Below, one piece after another: positions 5,220 through 49,671 of a stretch of DNA of 64,000 nucleotides. Origin of the DNA: Candidatus Kaiserbacteria bacterium (GTDB lineage: Bacteria; Patescibacteriota; Minisyncoccia; Phycocordibacterales; UBA918); assembly GCA_031430855.1 (NCBI GenBank), contig JANPCG010000006.1, positions 2,531 through 66,530 of the forward strand, in the 5' to 3' direction. The position numbers and the translations under genes are program-made. Every line of letters begins with the position of its first letter. Within the stretch, counting starts at the first letter, position 1. The notes below the pieces were generated by a model that did not search any database, had not been told where the DNA came from, and saw nothing but the letters and a program-made list of their open reading frames with translations.

Positions 5220-5229
5220 TGAAATCCGA

Positions 5230-5249
5230 CCCCGCGCCACGGCGCGGGG
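5230..5249 (+). terminator. GC hairpin ccccgcgcc-ac-ggcgcgggg followed by a T-rich tract
   Basis: Immediately after the stop of the 4671-5219 gene. Confidence 0.55.
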
Positions 5250-5274
5250 TTGATTGTTTTTATATTAAAACACT

Positions 5275-5310
5275 ACAAAGGACCGGCCTTCGCGAAGGCC
5301 GGTCCTTTGT
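5275..5310 (+). repeat. Copy 2 of the 36-bp palindromic hairpin repeat
   Basis: 36/36 identical to 4546-4581. Confidence 0.8.
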
Positions 5311-5370
5311 TTTAGTGATTTTAAAATTTTTTAGAACATCCAAAAGGAGATGCAGTTCTAGGCGCGCAAA

Positions 5371-8125: not shown

Positions 8126-10972
8126 ATGCATAAAAAATTTGATTCCACCCAGATTGAAAAGAAATGGCAAGAGCGATGGAAAGAAAGTGGAATCTATACC
8201 GTCGGAGAACGAGACGTAACAAAACCTAAAGAGTATGTCCTGGTTGAATGGCCGTACCCGTCAGGAAACCTCCACATTGGACACTGGTATGCCTTTGCCG
8301 TCCCTGATATCTATGCGCGCTTTAAGCGCATGAAGGGAACCCAGGTCTTATTTCCGATGGGTTTTGACGCCTTTGGACTCCCGGCAGAAAATGCGGCTAT
8401 TAAGCGCAATTTAGATCCTAAGGCGTGGACGAACGACAACATCGCCTACATGCGTGAACAACTCATTTCAATGGGCTGCAGTTTTTCCTGGGACAAAACC
8501 GCCAATTCGACTGATGCTGACTATTACAAATGGACCCAGTGGATGTTCACGCAGTTTTTTGAGCGGGGAATTGCGTATCGTGGTAAGGGAGTGGTTAATT
8601 GGTGTCCGGGATGTAACACAGTGATTGCAAACGAACAGGTACTAACTGACGGAACCTGTGAACGCTCAGGTGATGTGGTAGAGAAGCGAGAAATGCCGCA
8701 ATGGATGCTCAAGATTACAGAGTATGCTGACCGTCTGACTGATGACCTCAATGCGCTTGATTGGCCAGAACATATTAAAGAAGCCCAGCGGCAGTGGATC
8801 GGCCGCAGTCGCGGGGCGAAGATTGATTTTAAGCTTTCAACTGGTGACACTGTTACCGTATTTACTACTCGACCTGACACGTTATTCGGAGCAACATATG
8901 TTGTCCTTGCACCTGAACACCCACTTCTACAAAATGACAAGGTACGAGGCGAGACCTCGAACTTGACGGAGGTTAATAATTATATTACTACTGCGAAGCA
9001 AAAAGATGAACAAGATCGGCTCGATGCCACAAAAGAAAAGACTGGGGTAAAACTCGAAGGGATTACCGCTATTAATCCCGCGAGCGGGGAAGCGATTCCC
9101 GTCTACGTGGCCGACTATGTACTCGGCGGGTATGGCACCGGAGCCATTATGGCCGTACCAGCGCATGATGAACGAGACTATGCCTTTGCAACGAAGTTTG
9201 GGCTACCAATAAAACAAGTAGTTGTGCCGTGTGCTAATGATTCAAAAAACCCACCGCAGTCTGGGTATGAAGAAGTAAAACGAGATACTGTCATCATACA
9301 TCTACGCGACAAGAGTACCGGTAAATTTGCACTCTTAAATTGGCACGGTACTCTCGAAGGAATCACTACAGCAATTATGGGTGGTATTGAAGAAGGGCAA
9401 ACTCCAGAGGAAGCTGCGCTAGCGGAAATAAAAGAAGAAGCTGCTCTAGATAATGTAAAAATCGTTCATTCACTCAAATGGATTACCGCGGCAAAATATT
9501 GCGCCTCACATAAAAAACAAAATCGCTGTGCCCACACCTATACCTTTTTAGGTGAAGTAGAAAATCTCGAACAGCAGGGCTCTATTCCAGAAGCAGAAAA
9601 TTCTCTACATACGTTAGTCTGGGTAGAAAAGACTCAGGTTCTCGCTAAACTTACACCTGATCATCAAAAGCAGGTTTGGGAATTACTCCAAAAGGATACC
9701 GTTTTGACCGGAGCTGGCTATTTAATGAACTCAGGTGAATTTAATGGAATGGATTCAGACGAAGCGAAGGAAAAAATTGTTGCGCAAGTGGGAGGGGAAA
9801 TGACCTCAACCTATCGAATTCGTGATTGGTCAATTGGACGACAGCGATACTGGGGTGTTCCGATTCCAATTGTATATTCACCAGAAGGAGTAGCTCACAT
9901 TGTTCCTAAGGAACATTTGCCGTGGGTACTCCCCGAAGACGTCGATTTTAAACCGACCGGTGTCGCGCCACTCGCTAAAAGTGAAGCGCTAAGGAAACGA
10001 ACTGAGGAAATCTTTGGTGTTGGATGGACACCGGAAGTCGAAACCATGGATACGTTTGTCGATTCATCATGGTATTTCCTACGGTATCTTGATAACGCGA
10101 ATCCTGACTCTCTCTCATCGCTTGAAGCCCAAAAGAACTGGATGCCAATCGATATCTACTTTGGAGGGGCTGAACACACCACAATGCACTTACTCTACTC
10201 GCGCTTCTGGCAAAAGGCACTCTTTGACCTGGGGCTCGTGACTGAAACAGAACCCTATCGTCGACGAATTAACCGTGGACTCATCCTTGGGCCAGACGGA
10301 AACAAAATGAGCAAGAGCAAAGGCAACGTCATCGATCCTGATGCCCAGGTAGCTTTGGTCGGGTCAGACACGGTCAAAATGTACCTCGCCTTTATGGGAC
10401 CATACGAGGGAAGCAACTACCCGTTTGACCTCGGTGGAATTGCTGGTTTGCGTCGTTTCTTGGAGCGTGCGTACGGGCTACGTGATCATATTATCCCGAA
10501 TGAACCACTCACTGTCACCAAGCAACTCCACAAAACCATTGCCAAAGTAAACACTGATATTGTTGAATTTAAGTTCAATACGGCCATTAGTGCCATGATG
10601 ATATTTGTAAATCTCGCCGAAAAGGAAGGGTTAACCGAAGAAACTTACCGAATGTTTACACGACTTTTAGCACCATTTGCCCCGCATATTACTGAAGAAA
10701 TCTGGACTGAATTGGGGGAGACAACATCAATCCACTTAACGGAGTACCCGACGGCAAACCCGGAACTGGCACGCGATACTGAAGTTGTTATTGGAGTGCA
10801 AATTAACGGTAAATTACGAGGAGATATCACACTTAGCCCAAACGCAAGCGAAGCGGAAGCACTCAATATGGTAAAAGAAAATCCTGTTCTCAGGACCAGG
10901 CTAGAGGGAATCACACCGAATAAAGTCATCTACGTGCCCGGGAAAATCATCAACCTCATCCTTCCGACCTAG
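8126..10972 (+). CDS. leuS: Leucyl-tRNA synthetase with a roughly 160-aa Nudix-like insertion
   Basis: HIGH (NLHIGHWYAF) and KMSKS motifs; colinear with bacterial LeuRS except for extra sequence between ...KFGLPIKQVV and GAGYLMNSGEFNG. Confidence 0.95.
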   Translation: MHKKFDSTQIEKKWQERWKESGIYTVGERDVTKPKEYVLVEWPYPSGNLHIGHWYAFAVPDIYARFKRMKGTQVLFPMGFDAFGLPAENAAIKRNLDPKAWTNDNIAYMREQLISMGCSFSWDKTANSTDADYYKWTQWMFTQFFERGIAYRGKGVVNWCPGCNTVIANEQVLTDGTCERSGDVVEKREMPQWMLKITEYADRLTDDLNALDWPEHIKEAQRQWIGRSRGAKIDFKLSTGDTVTVFTTRPDTLFGATYVVLAPEHPLLQNDKVRGETSNLTEVNNYITTAKQKDEQDRLDATKEKTGVKLEGITAINPASGEAIPVYVADYVLGGYGTGAIMAVPAHDERDYAFATKFGLPIKQVVVPCANDSKNPPQSGYEEVKRDTVIIHLRDKSTGKFALLNWHGTLEGITTAIMGGIEEGQTPEEAALAEIKEEAALDNVKIVHSLKWITAAKYCASHKKQNRCAHTYTFLGEVENLEQQGSIPEAENSLHTLVWVEKTQVLAKLTPDHQKQVWELLQKDTVLTGAGYLMNSGEFNGMDSDEAKEKIVAQVGGEMTSTYRIRDWSIGRQRYWGVPIPIVYSPEGVAHIVPKEHLPWVLPEDVDFKPTGVAPLAKSEALRKRTEEIFGVGWTPEVETMDTFVDSSWYFLRYLDNANPDSLSSLEAQKNWMPIDIYFGGAEHTTMHLLYSRFWQKALFDLGLVTETEPYRRRINRGLILGPDGNKMSKSKGNVIDPDAQVALVGSDTVKMYLAFMGPYEGSNYPFDLGGIAGLRRFLERAYGLRDHIIPNEPLTVTKQLHKTIAKVNTDIVEFKFNTAISAMMIFVNLAEKEGLTEETYRMFTRLLAPFAPHITEEIWTELGETTSIHLTEYPTANPELARDTEVVIGVQINGKLRGDITLSPNASEAEALNMVKENPVLRTRLEGITPNKVIYVPGKIINLILPT

Positions 10973-21213: not shown

Positions 21214-23160
21214 ATGGGGGGAAATGACATTCGAGAAAAATATCTAGCTTTTATGGCCCAAAACGGCCACGCTATTATCCCGTCTGCGGCCCTTGTCCCC
21301 GAAAACGATCCAACCACCCTGTTTACCGGGAGTGGTATGCAGCCACTGATTCCATACCTAATGGGAGAACCACATCCAAAGGGGGTTCGTCTGACCGACT
21401 CCCAAAAGAGTTTCCGTGCGAACGACATCGAAGAAGTAGGGGACAATCGTCATACCACCTTCTTTGAAATGCTTGGTAACTGGTCTTTAGGTGACTACTT
21501 CAAAAAGGAACAGCTTCGATACTTTTTTTCATTTTTAGTTGATGAAGTCGGGCTTGATCCGGCACGAATTTACGTTACCGTGTTTGCTGGTGATGAATCA
21601 CTCGGTATTCCACGTGACGATGAATCGGTTGCCATCTGGAAAGAACTATTTGCTGAACGCGGCATTGAGGCCAAGGATGTCTTTATTGGAAGCGAAGAAG
21701 ACGGCTACCAAGTCGGAATGCAGGGTGGTCAGATTTTCTACTATGATGCAGCGAAGAACTGGTGGAGCCGCTCGGGTAAGCCTGCTAACATGCCCGCCGG
21801 GGAGATTGGCGGACCCGACAGTGAAGTGTTCTATGACTTTGGCCCAGAACATGCGACCCACCCAGTGTATGGAAGTCTAGCGGCGCACCCAAACAGCGAT
21901 TCCGGACAATTTCTTGAAATCGGTAACTCTGTGTTTATTGAGTACGTCAAACAACCTGATGGTTCATTTACGAAACTACCACAACGTAACGTGGACTTTG
22001 GTGGGGGACTCGAGCGTATTGCAGCCGCAAAAGTTGGTGACCCTGATGTATTTAAAGTTGACCTCTTAAAGACTGTTGTTAGTCAAATTGAAGACCTCTC
22101 AGATAAAAAATATGAAGATGAGCTCATTGCCTTCCGAGTGATTACTGACCACATACGCGGGGCAGTGTTCTTGATTGGTGATGGAGTACTGCCAGGTAAT
22201 TCAGATCAGGGATATTTCGTGCGTCGACTACTGAGGCGAGCTGTTCGTTATGCCGATAAAATCAATATTCCGGCTGGTAAATTCGCTCAGTTATCAGAAA
22301 GTGTGATTTCGACATACGAAGTGCACTACCGTAATTTAACTGAGAAGCGGACTGAAATCATTGAAGCAATCAGTAAAGAAGAGGAGCAATTCCGCAAGAC
22401 CCTTGAGAGTGGACTGAAGCAATTTAACAAAGTCTCGCTCCAGATTCATGTCAGCAGCACCGAAATAGACGGTAAAAAAGTCATTGATAAAAGCGTTAAC
22501 CCAATCACTAAACAAGCCATTAGTGCCCAAAATGCATTTGACCTCTACACCACTTACGGATTCCCGATTGAAGTAACTGAAGAAATTGCCGCCGAGAAGG
22601 GGCTTATCGTTGAGCGAGTAGGGTTTGAAAAACTGATGGAAGAGCACCGCAACCTCTCGCGCGCTGGAGCTGAACAGAAATTCAAAGGGGGACTAGCAGA
22701 CAATTCAGAGACGGTCGTACGTTACCACAGTGCAACCCACCTGATGCTCGCGGGACTCAGACAGATTTTAGGGACTCACGTCCACCAAGCCGGATCAAAC
22801 ATTACAGGCGAACGACTTCGTTACGACTTTACACATGGTGACAAAATGACACCGGAACAAATTGCTGCCGTTGAGGCGTTTGTAAACAACGCCATTAAAC
22901 AAGGTGGTGCGGTAACGATAGATATGATGGCAAAATCCGAAGCCGAAACCGACCCCACTATTGAAGCCAGTTTCTGGGACCGCTATCCAGACGAAGTAAA
23001 GGTCTATACCATGACGGGAACAGATGGAACAATTCTCTCACGCGAACTTTGTGGCGGTCCACATGTAGAAAAATTAGAGGATATCAATGGTACTTTTAAA
23101 ATTACGAAAGAAGAATCCTCTTCGGCGGGGGTACGACGCATCAAAGCAATCTTGGAATAA
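21214..23160 (+). CDS. alaS: Alanyl-tRNA synthetase, truncated form lacking the C-Ala domain
   Basis: Class II catalytic core; editing HxxxH (HSATHLMLAG); CGGPHV zinc motif. 648 aa versus about 875 aa typical. Confidence 0.9.
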   Translation: MGGNDIREKYLAFMAQNGHAIIPSAALVPENDPTTLFTGSGMQPLIPYLMGEPHPKGVRLTDSQKSFRANDIEEVGDNRHTTFFEMLGNWSLGDYFKKEQLRYFFSFLVDEVGLDPARIYVTVFAGDESLGIPRDDESVAIWKELFAERGIEAKDVFIGSEEDGYQVGMQGGQIFYYDAAKNWWSRSGKPANMPAGEIGGPDSEVFYDFGPEHATHPVYGSLAAHPNSDSGQFLEIGNSVFIEYVKQPDGSFTKLPQRNVDFGGGLERIAAAKVGDPDVFKVDLLKTVVSQIEDLSDKKYEDELIAFRVITDHIRGAVFLIGDGVLPGNSDQGYFVRRLLRRAVRYADKINIPAGKFAQLSESVISTYEVHYRNLTEKRTEIIEAISKEEEQFRKTLESGLKQFNKVSLQIHVSSTEIDGKKVIDKSVNPITKQAISAQNAFDLYTTYGFPIEVTEEIAAEKGLIVERVGFEKLMEEHRNLSRAGAEQKFKGGLADNSETVVRYHSATHLMLAGLRQILGTHVHQAGSNITGERLRYDFTHGDKMTPEQIAAVEAFVNNAIKQGGAVTIDMMAKSEAETDPTIEASFWDRYPDEVKVYTMTGTDGTILSRELCGGPHVEKLEDINGTFKITKEESSSAGVRRIKAILE

Positions 23161-46613: not shown

Positions 46614-47609
46614 ATGAAGAGGCATAATTTGGTAGTATATCAATCTATGAATACCTCTACCCGTCAGACCATTTTTACTGGACTTCAGTCATCAGGTGAT
46701 CTGCATATTGGCAATTATTTTGGTGCCATGAAGCCATTTCTTGACCTCTATTCGGAACGACACGCTTCGGCTGACTTCTTTCTTATGGTAGCTGACTACC
46801 ACGCCCTGACTTCAGTGCGTGATGGGGCAGTGCTTCGCACCAATATCTACAATACAGTGCGAGATTACCTCGCTATCGGCATTGACCCTGCGGCTGTCAC
46901 CATGTTCCGACAATCTGACAACCAAGACCATATGGAATTAGGATGGATCCTTAATTGTCTCGTGACCGTGCCGTTTTTGATGCAAGCACACGCATATAAG
47001 GACAAGGTAGCAAAAGGAGCCGAAGCGAACGCCGGACTCTTTACCTATCCAATGCTGATGGCAGCCGATATCCTTTTGTACAACACTGACATCGTGCCTG
47101 TCGGTGAAGACCAGCGACAACATCTCGAGTATGCGCGTGAAGCCGTAAGTAAATTCAACAATGCGTATGGTGAGCTGTTAAAAGAGCCCAAGGAACTCAT
47201 CTATGATGCAGTTGGGGTTATTCCTGGAACCGATGGGGCCAAAATGAGTAAAAGTTATAAAAATACCATTCCACTCTTTGGGAGCCGAGAAGAGATTCAA
47301 AAAGCCGTTATGAGTATTGTAACTGATAGTAGCAGTGAACGCCCACAGCACGTCTACGCGATTCATAAACTTTTCCGGACTGAAGCTGAATTAGAGACAC
47401 TGTATACCGAAAACCACGGTAAATATAAAAACCTTAAAGATGCGTTGATTGAGGACATCGAAGCCATGATCGCTCCAATGCGTGAGAAGCGAGCGAATAT
47501 TACTAATGAAGATATTCATGAAGTTCTTAGAAGTGGAGCAGAGCGAGCTCGAGCCGTATCAAGCGCCAAACTAGCCGAGGTGCGCTCACTCATCGGTATT
47601 TCGTTCTAA
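46614..47609 (+). CDS. trpS: Tryptophanyl-tRNA synthetase
   Basis: HIGH-like GDLHIGNY and KMSKS. Start may be ATG 46647 (MNTSTRQTIFTG). Confidence 0.93.
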   Translation: MKRHNLVVYQSMNTSTRQTIFTGLQSSGDLHIGNYFGAMKPFLDLYSERHASADFFLMVADYHALTSVRDGAVLRTNIYNTVRDYLAIGIDPAAVTMFRQSDNQDHMELGWILNCLVTVPFLMQAHAYKDKVAKGAEANAGLFTYPMLMAADILLYNTDIVPVGEDQRQHLEYAREAVSKFNNAYGELLKEPKELIYDAVGVIPGTDGAKMSKSYKNTIPLFGSREEIQKAVMSIVTDSSSERPQHVYAIHKLFRTEAELETLYTENHGKYKNLKDALIEDIEAMIAPMREKRANITNEDIHEVLRSGAERARAVSSAKLAEVRSLIGISF

Positions 47610-47610
47610 C

Positions 47611-48003
47611 ATGCGTCTTTTTAAATTCCCGAGCAATCGTGAACGTGAACAAGGGCCGTCCCGACTAGAACGAACTGTTCTTACACTCTGTGAACACATT
47701 TGCGCTATTCAAGCTGATGGTGGAGAGGGGATCAGTGGATTTACTACCGAGTCGAAAAAAATTTCAGATTCTGTAGCAGAAATTTCAGTTACCAGACTTA
47801 TGACAACTGGTAACCAAGTAGGTTTAGGTCGAGCTGAACTACAGCCAATTTGTGACCTGTTGAACAATCATCTTCGTATCGACGCCCGACCTTTTACGGT
47901 TTCAATTCTCGAAAGTCGGGACACCATACCAAGCACACCTGACGATGACTTTACTCAAAATGCGCATTTTACCTTACAGGTTAGAGCGCAAGATAACATT
48001 TGA
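47611..48003 (+). CDS. hypothetical protein
   Basis: 130-aa ORF overlapping the trpS stop; no motif. Confidence 0.4.
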   Translation: MRLFKFPSNREREQGPSRLERTVLTLCEHICAIQADGGEGISGFTTESKKISDSVAEISVTRLMTTGNQVGLGRAELQPICDLLNNHLRIDARPFTVSILESRDTIPSTPDDDFTQNAHFTLQVRAQDNI

Positions 48004-48252
48004 CAGACCAGCCATCTGTACTACTATAGACAGATACCAACGACGCAGCTGACACTGCCGAGGTGAGAGCAGAACGCTAGAAAACCTTTTAGTTAGTAGA
48101 CCTCTTCGGGCGCGCCCGCAATCGCGCAATCAAAAACAAGCGCCTTGAGTTGTACATACACAACCAGGAAATAGGGTGGCACCGCGACTCACATCGCCCC
48201 TATGAATGTATTACTAGAGTAGTATATTCATAGGGGCGATTTCGCTTTTATG
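48004..48252 (+). promoter_or_regulatory. T-box riboswitch leader of aspS
   Basis: Exact T-box box AGGGUGGCACCGCG at 48173-48186. AUAGGG pairs with CCCUAU in the 5' arm of a 14-bp terminator stem (48194-48207 / 48226-48239) followed by UUUCGCUUUUA. UGGC bulge fits the G73 discriminator of tRNA-Asp. GAC-A candidates for the specifier at 48003-48006 and 48029-48032. Confidence 0.75.
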
Positions 48253-48270
48253 AATATATAAATAAAAATT

Positions 48271-49671
48271 ATGAAACGAACACTCATAAAAGAACTTGAT
48301 ACACACATTGGAGAAACTATTACCATCCAAGGCTGGGTAGACGTGGTCCGTGACCAAGGCAAAATGGCCTTTTTTGATTTCCGTGACCGCAGTGGATTAG
48401 TTCAAGGTGTTGTATTTGGCAAACCAGAGGTATTGGAAGTTGCTAAAACGACTCGTCCGGAATTTGTAGTTGAAGTAACTGGCATTGTAAATAAGCGGCC
48501 AGAAAAAATGATCAATGCTTCCATTTTAAATGGTGACATAGAACTTGAAATTACAAATATAACAATACTGAACGAAACTGTCGTTTTACCATTTCCGATT
48601 AACGAGGACACTCGGATTGTGGATGAAGCGATCCGACTCAAATACCGGTACCTGGACCTGCGCAGTACGCGAATGCAAAAAAACGTCAAGGCACGGCACA
48701 CGATTCAAAAGTTTATCCGCGACACACTCACAGAAAAAGATTTTATCGAAGTCGAAACACCTCTTCTTTCAGCACCAACACCGGAAGGTTCTCGCTCGTA
48801 CGTCGTGCCGTCACGCCTGAGTCCAGGGACGTTTTATTCTCTCCCGCAATCACCACAGCAGTATAAGCAACTTTTGATGGTTGGTGGGTTTGAACGTTAC
48901 TTTCAGTTTGCCCGCTGCCTCCGTGACGAAGATTCTCGAGGGGATCGTCAGCCAGAGTTTACCCAACTCGACATGGAACTTTCTTTTGTCACCGAAGAAG
49001 ATGTCATGAGTTTAAACGAACAAATTCTGATTGAACTTGTGACTAAATTTTACCCAGAAAAGCATATCCAGCAGGTACCGTTCCCACGGATGACATACCA
49101 TGACGCCATGGAGAAGCATGGCAATGACCGTCCCGATATTCGAGAAGATAAAAATGACCAAAACCTCTTAGCTTTTTTGTGGGTGACTGATTTCCCGGCG
49201 TTTGAAAAAACAGGACAAGATAACGTGGACGGCACGGGAGAATGGACCTTCACACACAATCCTTTTGCTAAGGTAAAGGACGCCTACCTCGAAGACTTTA
49301 TGGCAGGGAAAAATGTTGGAAACCTCATCAGTACGCAATATGATATCACCTTAAATGGGTACGAGATTGGTGGTGGAAGTATCCGTAATCATGTCTCATC
49401 ATGCCAAAAGAAAACCTTTGAAATTATGGGGTATGACGAAGTCCGTATTATAGATAATTTTGGACACATGCTGACAGCGCTTGAATTCGGCGCACCGCCA
49501 CATGGGGGAATTGCTTGGGGTTTTGATCGTTTGATCATGATCCTCGAAGATGAACCAAACATCCGTGAAGTAATTCCGTTTGCAAAAACGGGTGAAGGGA
49601 AAGACCTTATGATGGACGCTCCAGCCAAGGTAAACGAAAAGCAACTGAAAGAACTTGGGATAAAAATCTAA
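48271..49671 (+). CDS. aspS: Aspartyl-tRNA synthetase, bacterial type lacking the GAD insertion domain
   Basis: OB anticodon-binding domain; motif 2 FRDEDSRGDRQPEFTQLDME; motif 3 GGIAWGFDRL. 466 aa versus about 590 aa. Confidence 0.93.
   Translation: MKRTLIKELDTHIGETITIQGWVDVVRDQGKMAFFDFRDRSGLVQGVVFGKPEVLEVAKTTRPEFVVEVTGIVNKRPEKMINASILNGDIELEITNITILNETVVLPFPINEDTRIVDEAIRLKYRYLDLRSTRMQKNVKARHTIQKFIRDTLTEKDFIEVETPLLSAPTPEGSRSYVVPSRLSPGTFYSLPQSPQQYKQLLMVGGFERYFQFARCLRDEDSRGDRQPEFTQLDMELSFVTEEDVMSLNEQILIELVTKFYPEKHIQQVPFPRMTYHDAMEKHGNDRPDIREDKNDQNLLAFLWVTDFPAFEKTGQDNVDGTGEWTFTHNPFAKVKDAYLEDFMAGKNVGNLISTQYDITLNGYEIGGGSIRNHVSSCQKKTFEIMGYDEVRIIDNFGHMLTALEFGAPPHGGIAWGFDRLIMILEDEPNIREVIPFAKTGEGKDLMMDAPAKVNEKQLKELGIKI

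Follow-up and report, generated by a model that had tools for sequence, protein, structure and literature searches.

T-box riboswitches have been divided into four classes. In Class III, Stem I is short and lacks the elbow-binding motif, the specifier is presented in an apical loop of 5-6 nt, and Stem II is required (PMC10482949); examples are the ileS leaders of Actinobacteria, with those of Nocardia farcinica and Mycobacterium tuberculosis among them (Sherwood 2015 as cited in PMC7583486 and PMC10482949). Roles have been described for the S-turn and the pseudoknot, the RRRxG-Stem III-AA motif is also on record, and the bottom pair of antiterminator helix A2, a G.U wobble that is conserved but not strictly defining, is regarded as the chief steric sensor for the aminoacyl group (PMC7583486). 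T-boxes that act through a terminator are held to need a long Stem I and contact with the tRNA elbow for fast capture, while a short Stem I is associated with translational control of a slower, reversible kind (PMC7583486). The leader of the aspartyl-tRNA synthetase gene aspS, in the 64-kb stretch of contig JANPCG010000006.1 analysed here (hereafter the window), would join what that view keeps apart. It is most probably a tRNA-Asp-responsive, transcription-attenuating T-box whose decoding module is a short Stem I of the Class III type.

A predicted T-box in the aspS leader

The leader runs for 267 nt from the stop codon (48001-48003) of an upstream open reading frame (ORF) of 130 aa to the aspS ATG at 48271, boundaries that agree with the length given in the original prediction, which had described a canonical T-box riboswitch at this position. 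As that prediction had claimed, the sequence AGGGTGGCACCGCG at 48173-48186 is an exact copy of the 14-nt T-box sequence; it is the sole match in the window when up to one mismatch is allowed, and none was found in 100 shuffles. The T-box sequence AGGGUGGNACCGCG lies on the 5' side of the predicted antiterminator, where it forms a 7-nt bulge, UGGCACC (48177-48183; UGGN-ACC). Upstream of it stands Stem III, whose 9 bp carry a single bulged A and are capped by the loop ACAUAC. AUAGGG (48171-48176) has its complement, CCCUAU (48198-48203), within the 5' arm of the terminator, and folding confirmed the perfect 14-bp terminator stem (48194-48207/48226-48239) reported earlier. At the level of sequence and structure, these features support the proposed competition between antiterminator and terminator in the control of aspS (Table 1).

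Related leaders were identified among 160 aspS loci, 80 of them from species-representative genomes, all of which are metagenome-assembled genomes (MAGs) of the Patescibacteria type, and 80 from metagenomes. A covariance model (R1), trained on 11 full-architecture leaders, found 11 leaders in the genome loci and 37 in the metagenome loci, or ~48 in all. Structure was assessed in two alignments: a MAFFT alignment of 11 full-architecture relatives with a hand-drawn structure (alignment A2) and a model-guided alignment of 30 distinct leaders (alignment A3). In alignment A2, 88.7% of cells were paired and 14 of 30 pairs showed compensatory changes, against 37-50% pairing in slid registers, and none of 500 shuffles reached the observed values. 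Similarly, alignment A3 had 93.6% of cells paired (40-53% in slid registers), with compensatory changes in 20 of 26 pairs.

Searches of the 64-kb window with the curated Rfam thresholds gave no hit. In E-value mode, the T-box family RF00230 aligned end to end with positions 48031-48204 at 36.6 bits, which is significant by E-value (1.1e-6 in a local search and 1.6e-4 across the whole window) but falls below the gathering score of 93. The alignment places the kink-turn (K-turn), the S-turn, helix IIA, Stem III and the antiterminator, and matches Stem II at GAA and AGUA, but it deletes 74 Stem I model positions and has 4 nt in their place; the absence of these positions is the sole cause of the shortfall in score, and the label 'canonical' does not survive it. 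The gathering threshold was reached by none of the 20 relatives tested. The curated Rfam threshold thus misses the window element and all 20 of these relatives, a gap that leaves such elements unreported in genome annotation. As judged from its sequence and predicted structure, the aspS leader is nonetheless a genuine, conserved T-box of the tRNA-Asp type, albeit a non-canonical one.

Table 1 Features of the aspS leader and gene, with positions in the window
Feature	Position	Strand	Details
Probable sigma-70-type promoter	48000-48027	+	-35 TTGACA 48000-48005, 16-nt spacer, -10 TACTAT 48022-48027; 10/12 consensus matches
Short Stem I (29 nt)	48036-48064	+	Rfam K-turn placement; helix pairing 100% in alignment A2 and 95-100% in alignment A3, with compensatory changes
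Specifier GAC (Asp) with conserved 3' purine A48054	48051-48054	+	Position kept in relatives
Stem II	48065-48106	+	Lower helix 48065-69/48102-106; S-turn AGAA 48071-74 / AGUAGA 48095-48100; distal hairpin 48076-82/48087-93
IIA/B pseudoknot	48107-48126	+	IIA CGGG 48107-10/CCCG 48115-18; IIB, loop CGCG 48111-14 with CGCG 48123-26
Discriminator, 5' part	48138-48170	+	Purine string AAGCG 48138-42 (RRRxG), Stem III 48144-48168, AA 48169-70; minimum free energy fold and motif check
Antiterminator	48171-48203	+	Helix A1 48171-76/48198-203, bulge 48177-83, helix A2 48184-87/48194-97, loop CUCACA; -10.0 kcal/mol
Intrinsic terminator	48194-48249	+	Hairpin 48194-48239 plus U-tract; 5' arm reuses the 3' strands of helices A2 and A1
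aspS	48271-49671	+	Bacterial-type aspartyl-tRNA synthetase, 466 aa; two stretches match NCBIfam PRK00476 (591 bits); TIGR00459, 541 bits

Promoter, Stem I and specifier

The 5' part of the leader is built on a 29-nt hairpin, 5'-ACC-AAC-GA-C-GCAG-[CUGACA]-CUGC-C-GA-GGU-3'. At its base, a C-stem (48036-38/48062-64) is followed by the K-turn bulge AAC (48039-41) and tandem G.A pairs (48042-43/48060-61); above a C.C mismatch (48044/48059), a 4-bp helix (48045-48/48055-58) ends in the apical hexaloop CUGACA (48049-54), closed by G48048-C48055. The GA dinucleotides of the layout ACC-AAC-GA...GA-GGU are invariant columns aligned to the Rfam K-turn positions, an assignment made at the level of sequence, and an automatic parse recovered the same Stem I layout in ~29 of 37 distinct relatives. 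The distal elbow-binding motif (IDTM, a motif of two interdigitated T-loops) is absent from Stem I. The hairpin folds with an aspartate codon in its specifier loop, as the original prediction would have it, but that loop is terminal rather than internal, and an internal specifier loop with an S-turn, a distal AG bulge and a distal loop are all missing.

The position of the promoter bears on whether a longer Stem I could exist. Transcription is inferred to start at about 48034-48035, next to the hairpin. In 31 of 34 related leaders a TAnnnT box begins 10-17 nt 5' of the first Stem I nucleotide, compared with 12.6% of random positions, so these RNAs would begin at the short hairpin, with no space upstream for a long Stem I. 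A hidden upstream Stem I was rejected in view of this conserved -10 box, which stands directly 5' of Stem I, together with the Rfam alignment.

The alternative of a canonical Class I T-box, with a long Stem I, an internal specifier loop, an elbow platform and one of the upstream tetramers as specifier, draws on the canonical 3' half of the leader (T-box sequence, bulge, antiterminator and terminator), which the original prediction had described correctly. The tetramers on which it relies do exist: GACA at 48029 and GAUA at 48033 were confirmed, although the other GACA starts at 48002 and not 48003, and a small hairpin is possible at 48012-48034. However, all three lie in or just past the promoter hexamers, upstream of and outside the K-turn hairpin, and were rejected as specifiers. 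Neither AG-bulge nor distal-loop motifs occur anywhere within the 267-nt leader, the Stem I part of RF00230 finds no counterpart, the -10 box abuts Stem I in the relatives, and the short hairpin of the relatives holds GAC or GAU in its apical loop, with AAC as the exception. The Class I reading is effectively refuted by these observations. The 5' half had been wrongly described, and the true specifier, GAC at 48051-48053, was overlooked.

Of 35 hand-checked leaders (34 upstream of aspS plus that of the window), all except three have GAC or GAU, with A after it, at this position of the loop. GAU is found at five loci, representing three distinct sequences, and all remaining specifiers are GAC apart from AAC in L100, its duplicate L113, and L021. 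The loop positions A-C-A are invariant in alignment A2. The automatic Stem I parser was wrong in eight leaders, six of which were corrected by hand (L015, L017, L082, L092, L138 and L142), while L091 and L140 were left out of the loop tables.

The AAC (Asn) specifiers comprise two independent cases, L100:1279-1439 (= L113), with the loop ACAACA, and L021:192-303, with the loop AAAACA, both of which have a UGGU bulge. These leaders may represent tRNA-Asn-sensing control of a non-discriminating aspartyl-tRNA synthetase (AspRS). Such AAC codons, which stand where GAC otherwise does in aspS leaders, raise the question of whether the window leader also monitors tRNA-Asn, or does so instead, with GAC read by anticodon GUU through a first-position G.U wobble. 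Many bacteria without asparaginyl-tRNA synthetase (AsnRS) use a non-discriminating AspRS, and several phyla lack AsnRS (PMC2494555). However, the window codon GAC is a perfect match for tRNA-Asp, and binding would be strongly weakened by one wobble among three base pairs, which leaves sensing of tRNA-Asn by the window leader very improbable.

The T-box bulge is consistent with tRNA-Asp as the ligand. UGGC predicts a G73 discriminator base, as the original prediction had argued, and this fits the tRNA-Asp(GUC) gene of the related locus L101, evidence that comes from a relative. In L101 this gene lies ~1 kb upstream of a UGGC, GAC-type T-box and ends in ...CUGGUGC-G, with G73 and with CCA not encoded. 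Two leaders whose AspRS is 81-84% identical (L081:53-200 and L088:1282-1439) combine a GAC specifier with a UGGU bulge, which implies either a U.G wobble with G73 or another discriminator base.

Conservation and variation of the leader

All five pairs of the Stem II lower helix covary (96% of cells paired), and the columns of its S-turn (loop E), AGAA and GUAGA, are invariant or nearly so. In the antiterminator, helix A1 is paired in 90-97% of cells and helix A2 in 98-99%, with compensatory changes in both. The topology of the IIA/B pseudoknot was found in nine of 13 related leaders with differing sequences (e.g. UUUGC/GCAAA, CUGCA/UGCAG, UGCGC/GCGCA and UUUG/CAAG); here, the MAFFT alignment gave 56-74% pairing owing to register shifts, and the pseudoknot was judged for each sequence against shuffles, with a mean score of 5.8 versus 2.1. 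The elements invariant across relatives are the GA dinucleotides of the K-turn, A-C-A of the loop, AGAA/GUAGA and the core of the T-box sequence.

This pattern bears on whether the element is a decaying or non-functional relic, in which case aspS would be constitutive and the hairpin would simply end the trpS-orf130 transcript. Most Patescibacteria aspS loci are free of a T-box (11 of 80 diverse genome loci have one), Stem II and/or Stem III have been lost in some relatives, and the sensor pair of the window element is G-C and not G.U, all of which would suit such decay. In contrast, compensatory changes occur in every helix across AspRS sequences 50-88% identical, the nucleotides of the specifier, K-turn, S-turn and T-box sequence are invariant, a dedicated promoter stands between the upstream gene and Stem I, and the element is retained in all eight close relatives for which upstream DNA was included. 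A relic is considered extremely improbable.

Two forms of the leader can be distinguished by the size of the specifier loop. Of the 34 leaders checked by hand, 14 have a 6-nt loop, and every one of these has Stem II, accompanied by the S-turn and the pseudoknot, whereas 19 of the 20 with a 7-9-nt loop are without it. The Stem II-less leaders are ~100 nt long and have no elbow platform (e.g. L083:1331-1434, L147:1386-1481, L062:2244-2353 and L119:59-181), and from their sequences they fit none of the published T-box classes. Their typical loops are CUGACAA or CUGACAC, the former of which fits the consensus of a tRNA anticodon loop, Y-U-NNN-R-A. Grosjean and Crothers are said to have found the complexes of anticodon loops with complementary triplets unusually stable, and this stability provides a rationale for the putative function of these leaders.

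Other differences among the relatives were also observed. The Stem III hairpin is missing between the pseudoknot and the T-box sequence in the full-architecture relatives L015, L069, L081, L082, L087, L088, L144 and L157, and four of these (L081, L082, L087 and L088) have an additional hairpin inside helix A2 (alignment A2 columns 116-163 and 181-211). In L090, L093/L094, L097/L137, L117/L118, L121, L140 and L141, a distance of 480-1100 nt separates the Asp-type T-box from aspS downstream, and the one or two unrelated small ORFs in between share no common theme and are presumably co-regulated.

Terminator and output mode

The terminator hairpin has 14 perfect base pairs, or 21 when G-U pairs are included (48194-48214/48219-48239), with a predicted stability of -33.2 kcal/mol. 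As this far exceeds the -10.0 kcal/mol of the antiterminator, the default state would be OFF. The U-rich tract reported earlier is present as UUUCGCUUUU at 48240-48249, although it ends 21 nt and not 20 nt before the ATG. Nearly all relatives likewise have a hairpin followed by a U-rich tract, with differing stem sequences that reuse the 3' strand of the antiterminator, and where aspS is the first gene these elements end 17-60 nt before it. Other clean hairpin-plus-U terminators were found in the window.

The same hairpin could in principle act on translation, as a sequestrator of the ribosome-binding region in the manner of the Class III ileS leaders. T-boxes of Classes III and IV are said to 'mostly regulate translation initiation' (PMC10482949), the U-tract of the window element is imperfect, and several relatives carry GGAGG in the 3' arm of the hairpin. 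However, the 3' arm in the window, AUAGGGGCGA, has no GGAGG, the hairpin ends 31 nt from the AUG, and the intervening AUGAAUAUAUAAAUAAAAAUU contains no Shine-Dalgarno (SD) sequence. No SD-like motif precedes aspS, and in the whole window 5 of the 40 long ORFs have any such motif. With no SD before aspS and the hairpin 31 nt from the AUG, an SD-sequestering mechanism has no target, and SD sequestration was rejected for this leader in a window that is SD-poor as a whole. Given also the U-rich tract that follows the hairpin in nearly every relative, translational control is improbable, and attenuation of transcription is the favoured output.

A TAnAAT-like box stands no more than ~20 nt from the ATG of many long ORFs in the window (e.g. 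upstream of 49751, 51302, 23379, 24645, 61716 and, on the reverse strand, 42846), which suggests that leaderless or very short-leader mRNAs are widespread here. A mini-ORF of three codons (AUG AAU AUA UAA) at 48250-48261, between the U-tract and the aspS start, is probably incidental.

Proposed mechanism

By analogy with established T-box biology, the elements described above would bind tRNA, sense its charge and terminate transcription as follows. Transcription would proceed from the promoter with a start at ~48034, and the nascent RNA would first fold the 29-nt K-turn hairpin, displaying GAC-A in its apical hexaloop. The purines of the Stem II S-turn would then dock on the helix between the codon and the anticodon GUC of tRNA-Asp, while the IIA/B pseudoknot would keep Stems I and II in position. 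Contact with the tRNA elbow would be impossible, since Stem I has no distal part. The 3' end of uncharged tRNA, G73-C-C-A, would pair with UGGC of the T-box bulge. With aminoacylated tRNA, or with none, the more stable terminator (-33 kcal/mol) would form and transcription would stop at the U-tract, ~25 nt before aspS.

Several points weigh against this reading. The bottom pair of helix A2 is G48184-C48197 rather than the canonical G.U wobble; among the 30 distinct leaders of alignment A3 (columns 323/383), 19 have G.U here and 11 have G-C. The U-tract is interrupted. Alignment A3 was fitted to the model and is biased toward its structure, for which the MAFFT alignment A2 serves as a control without such bias. 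There are no tRNA genes in the 64-kb window, and the host's own tRNA-Asp lies outside it. In addition, transcriptional T-boxes have been argued to need elbow contact for fast tRNA capture (PMC7583486), and a terminator-coupled T-box without it may work poorly or require slow or paused transcription.

A broader possibility is that the window leader belongs to an unrecognised, Patescibacteria-wide lineage of terminating T-boxes without elbow contact, which would include, among the relatives, a sub-class of Stem II-less kissing-loop leaders. This is put forward tentatively, with odds slightly below even. If it were true, the Stem II-less relatives, with a K-turn hairpin and the 7-nt loop CU-GAC-AA, would be pure loop-loop 'kissing' sensors and, if functional, would define the smallest natural tRNA-sensing switch. 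Functional leaders of this kind would also speak against an elbow platform as a requirement of T-boxes under kinetic control.

The synthetase and other genes of the window

The AspRS encoded downstream appears to be without the internal insertion domain, as its match to the 590-aa bacterial profile falls in two stretches. AspRS homologues of 466-480 aa occur in Parcubacteria/Paceibacterota MAGs, and this length is common in Patescibacteria. Its closest homologues (<=88% identity) are found in metagenomes and MAGs only, and those with names belong to Parcubacteria/Candidatus Paceibacterota. On the basis of these names, the host is assigned to the Patescibacteria (Parcubacteria/Paceibacterota-like), outside the phyla with documented T-boxes.

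In agreement with the original prediction, no T-box was found upstream of leuS (8126-10972), alaS (21214-23160) or trpS (46614-47609) by pattern search, by Rfam in E-value mode or with the family-specific model R1. Across the window, the T-box pattern with two mismatches gave seven hits versus 4.6 expected by chance, and the next best R1 score was 12.3 bits.

Other features of these genes were also observed. The leucyl-tRNA synthetase encoded by leuS (948 aa) has a NUDIX hydrolase domain (PF00293, E = 4e-9) at residues 388-515, adjoining the editing domain. The 189-nt gap 5' of alaS contains a 22-bp perfect inverted repeat (21056-21077/21115-21136); folding of the repeat region gives z = -6.9, no U-tract is present, and a microRNA hairpin model matched the region on both strands, but it is not a T-box. 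A weak match to the Rfam Leu_leader at 5224-5329 on the reverse strand (31.7 bits versus a gathering score of 50, E = 0.013) is probably due to chance.

Comparison with known T-box classes

Class I T-boxes (the Bacillus subtilis tyrS type, RF00230, which includes the aspS and hisS-aspS leaders of Firmicutes) share with the window element the 14-nt T-box sequence, the competition between antiterminator and terminator with a default OFF state, the Stem II S-turn, the IIA/B pseudoknot, Stem III with its flanking purines and, in the aspartate leaders, a specifier that matches the aspS target. They differ in having the long Stem I with its internal S-turn specifier loop, AG bulge and distal loop (IDTM), none of which is present in the window. 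Similarly, the glyQS leaders of Class II are transcriptional and reduced, and resemble some relatives of the window element, though not the window copy itself, in being without Stem II. However, glyQS leaders are glycine-specific and keep the long Stem I and elbow platform, whereas in the window element it is the platform that is gone and Stem II that remains, a reduction in the opposite direction.

The closest likeness is to the ileS leaders of Class III, and in its predicted structure the window element shows every structural feature by which that class is defined. In both, a short Stem I lacking the double T-loop elbow motif has a K-turn at its base and presents the specifier, with an adjoining purine, in an apical loop of 5-6 nt; both also have an S-turn in Stem II, a compact IIA/B pseudoknot and, in the discriminator, a UGGN bulge. 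In contrast, the window element has an intrinsic terminator with a U-tract in place of the SD sequestrator of the ileS leaders (a feature typical of the class, not defining it), its helix A2 base pair is G-C and not G.U, and it serves aspartate and aspS in an SD-poor member of the Patescibacteria, while the known examples serve isoleucine and ileS in Actinobacteria. On a conservative view it could be a new member of the class and nothing more, since Class III is 'mostly', not always, translational. The searchable literature yielded no paper linking T-box riboswitches with Patescibacteria or candidate phyla, and an earlier report of a terminator-coupled short Stem I is possible.

In the ultrasmall Patescibacteria, for which very few regulators are recognised, the leader would now put an essential synthetase gene under a tRNA-sensing riboswitch. 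More generally, ~48 natural leaders couple a short Stem I to a terminator in hosts that barely use SD sequences, making the kinetic argument for a long Stem I directly testable.

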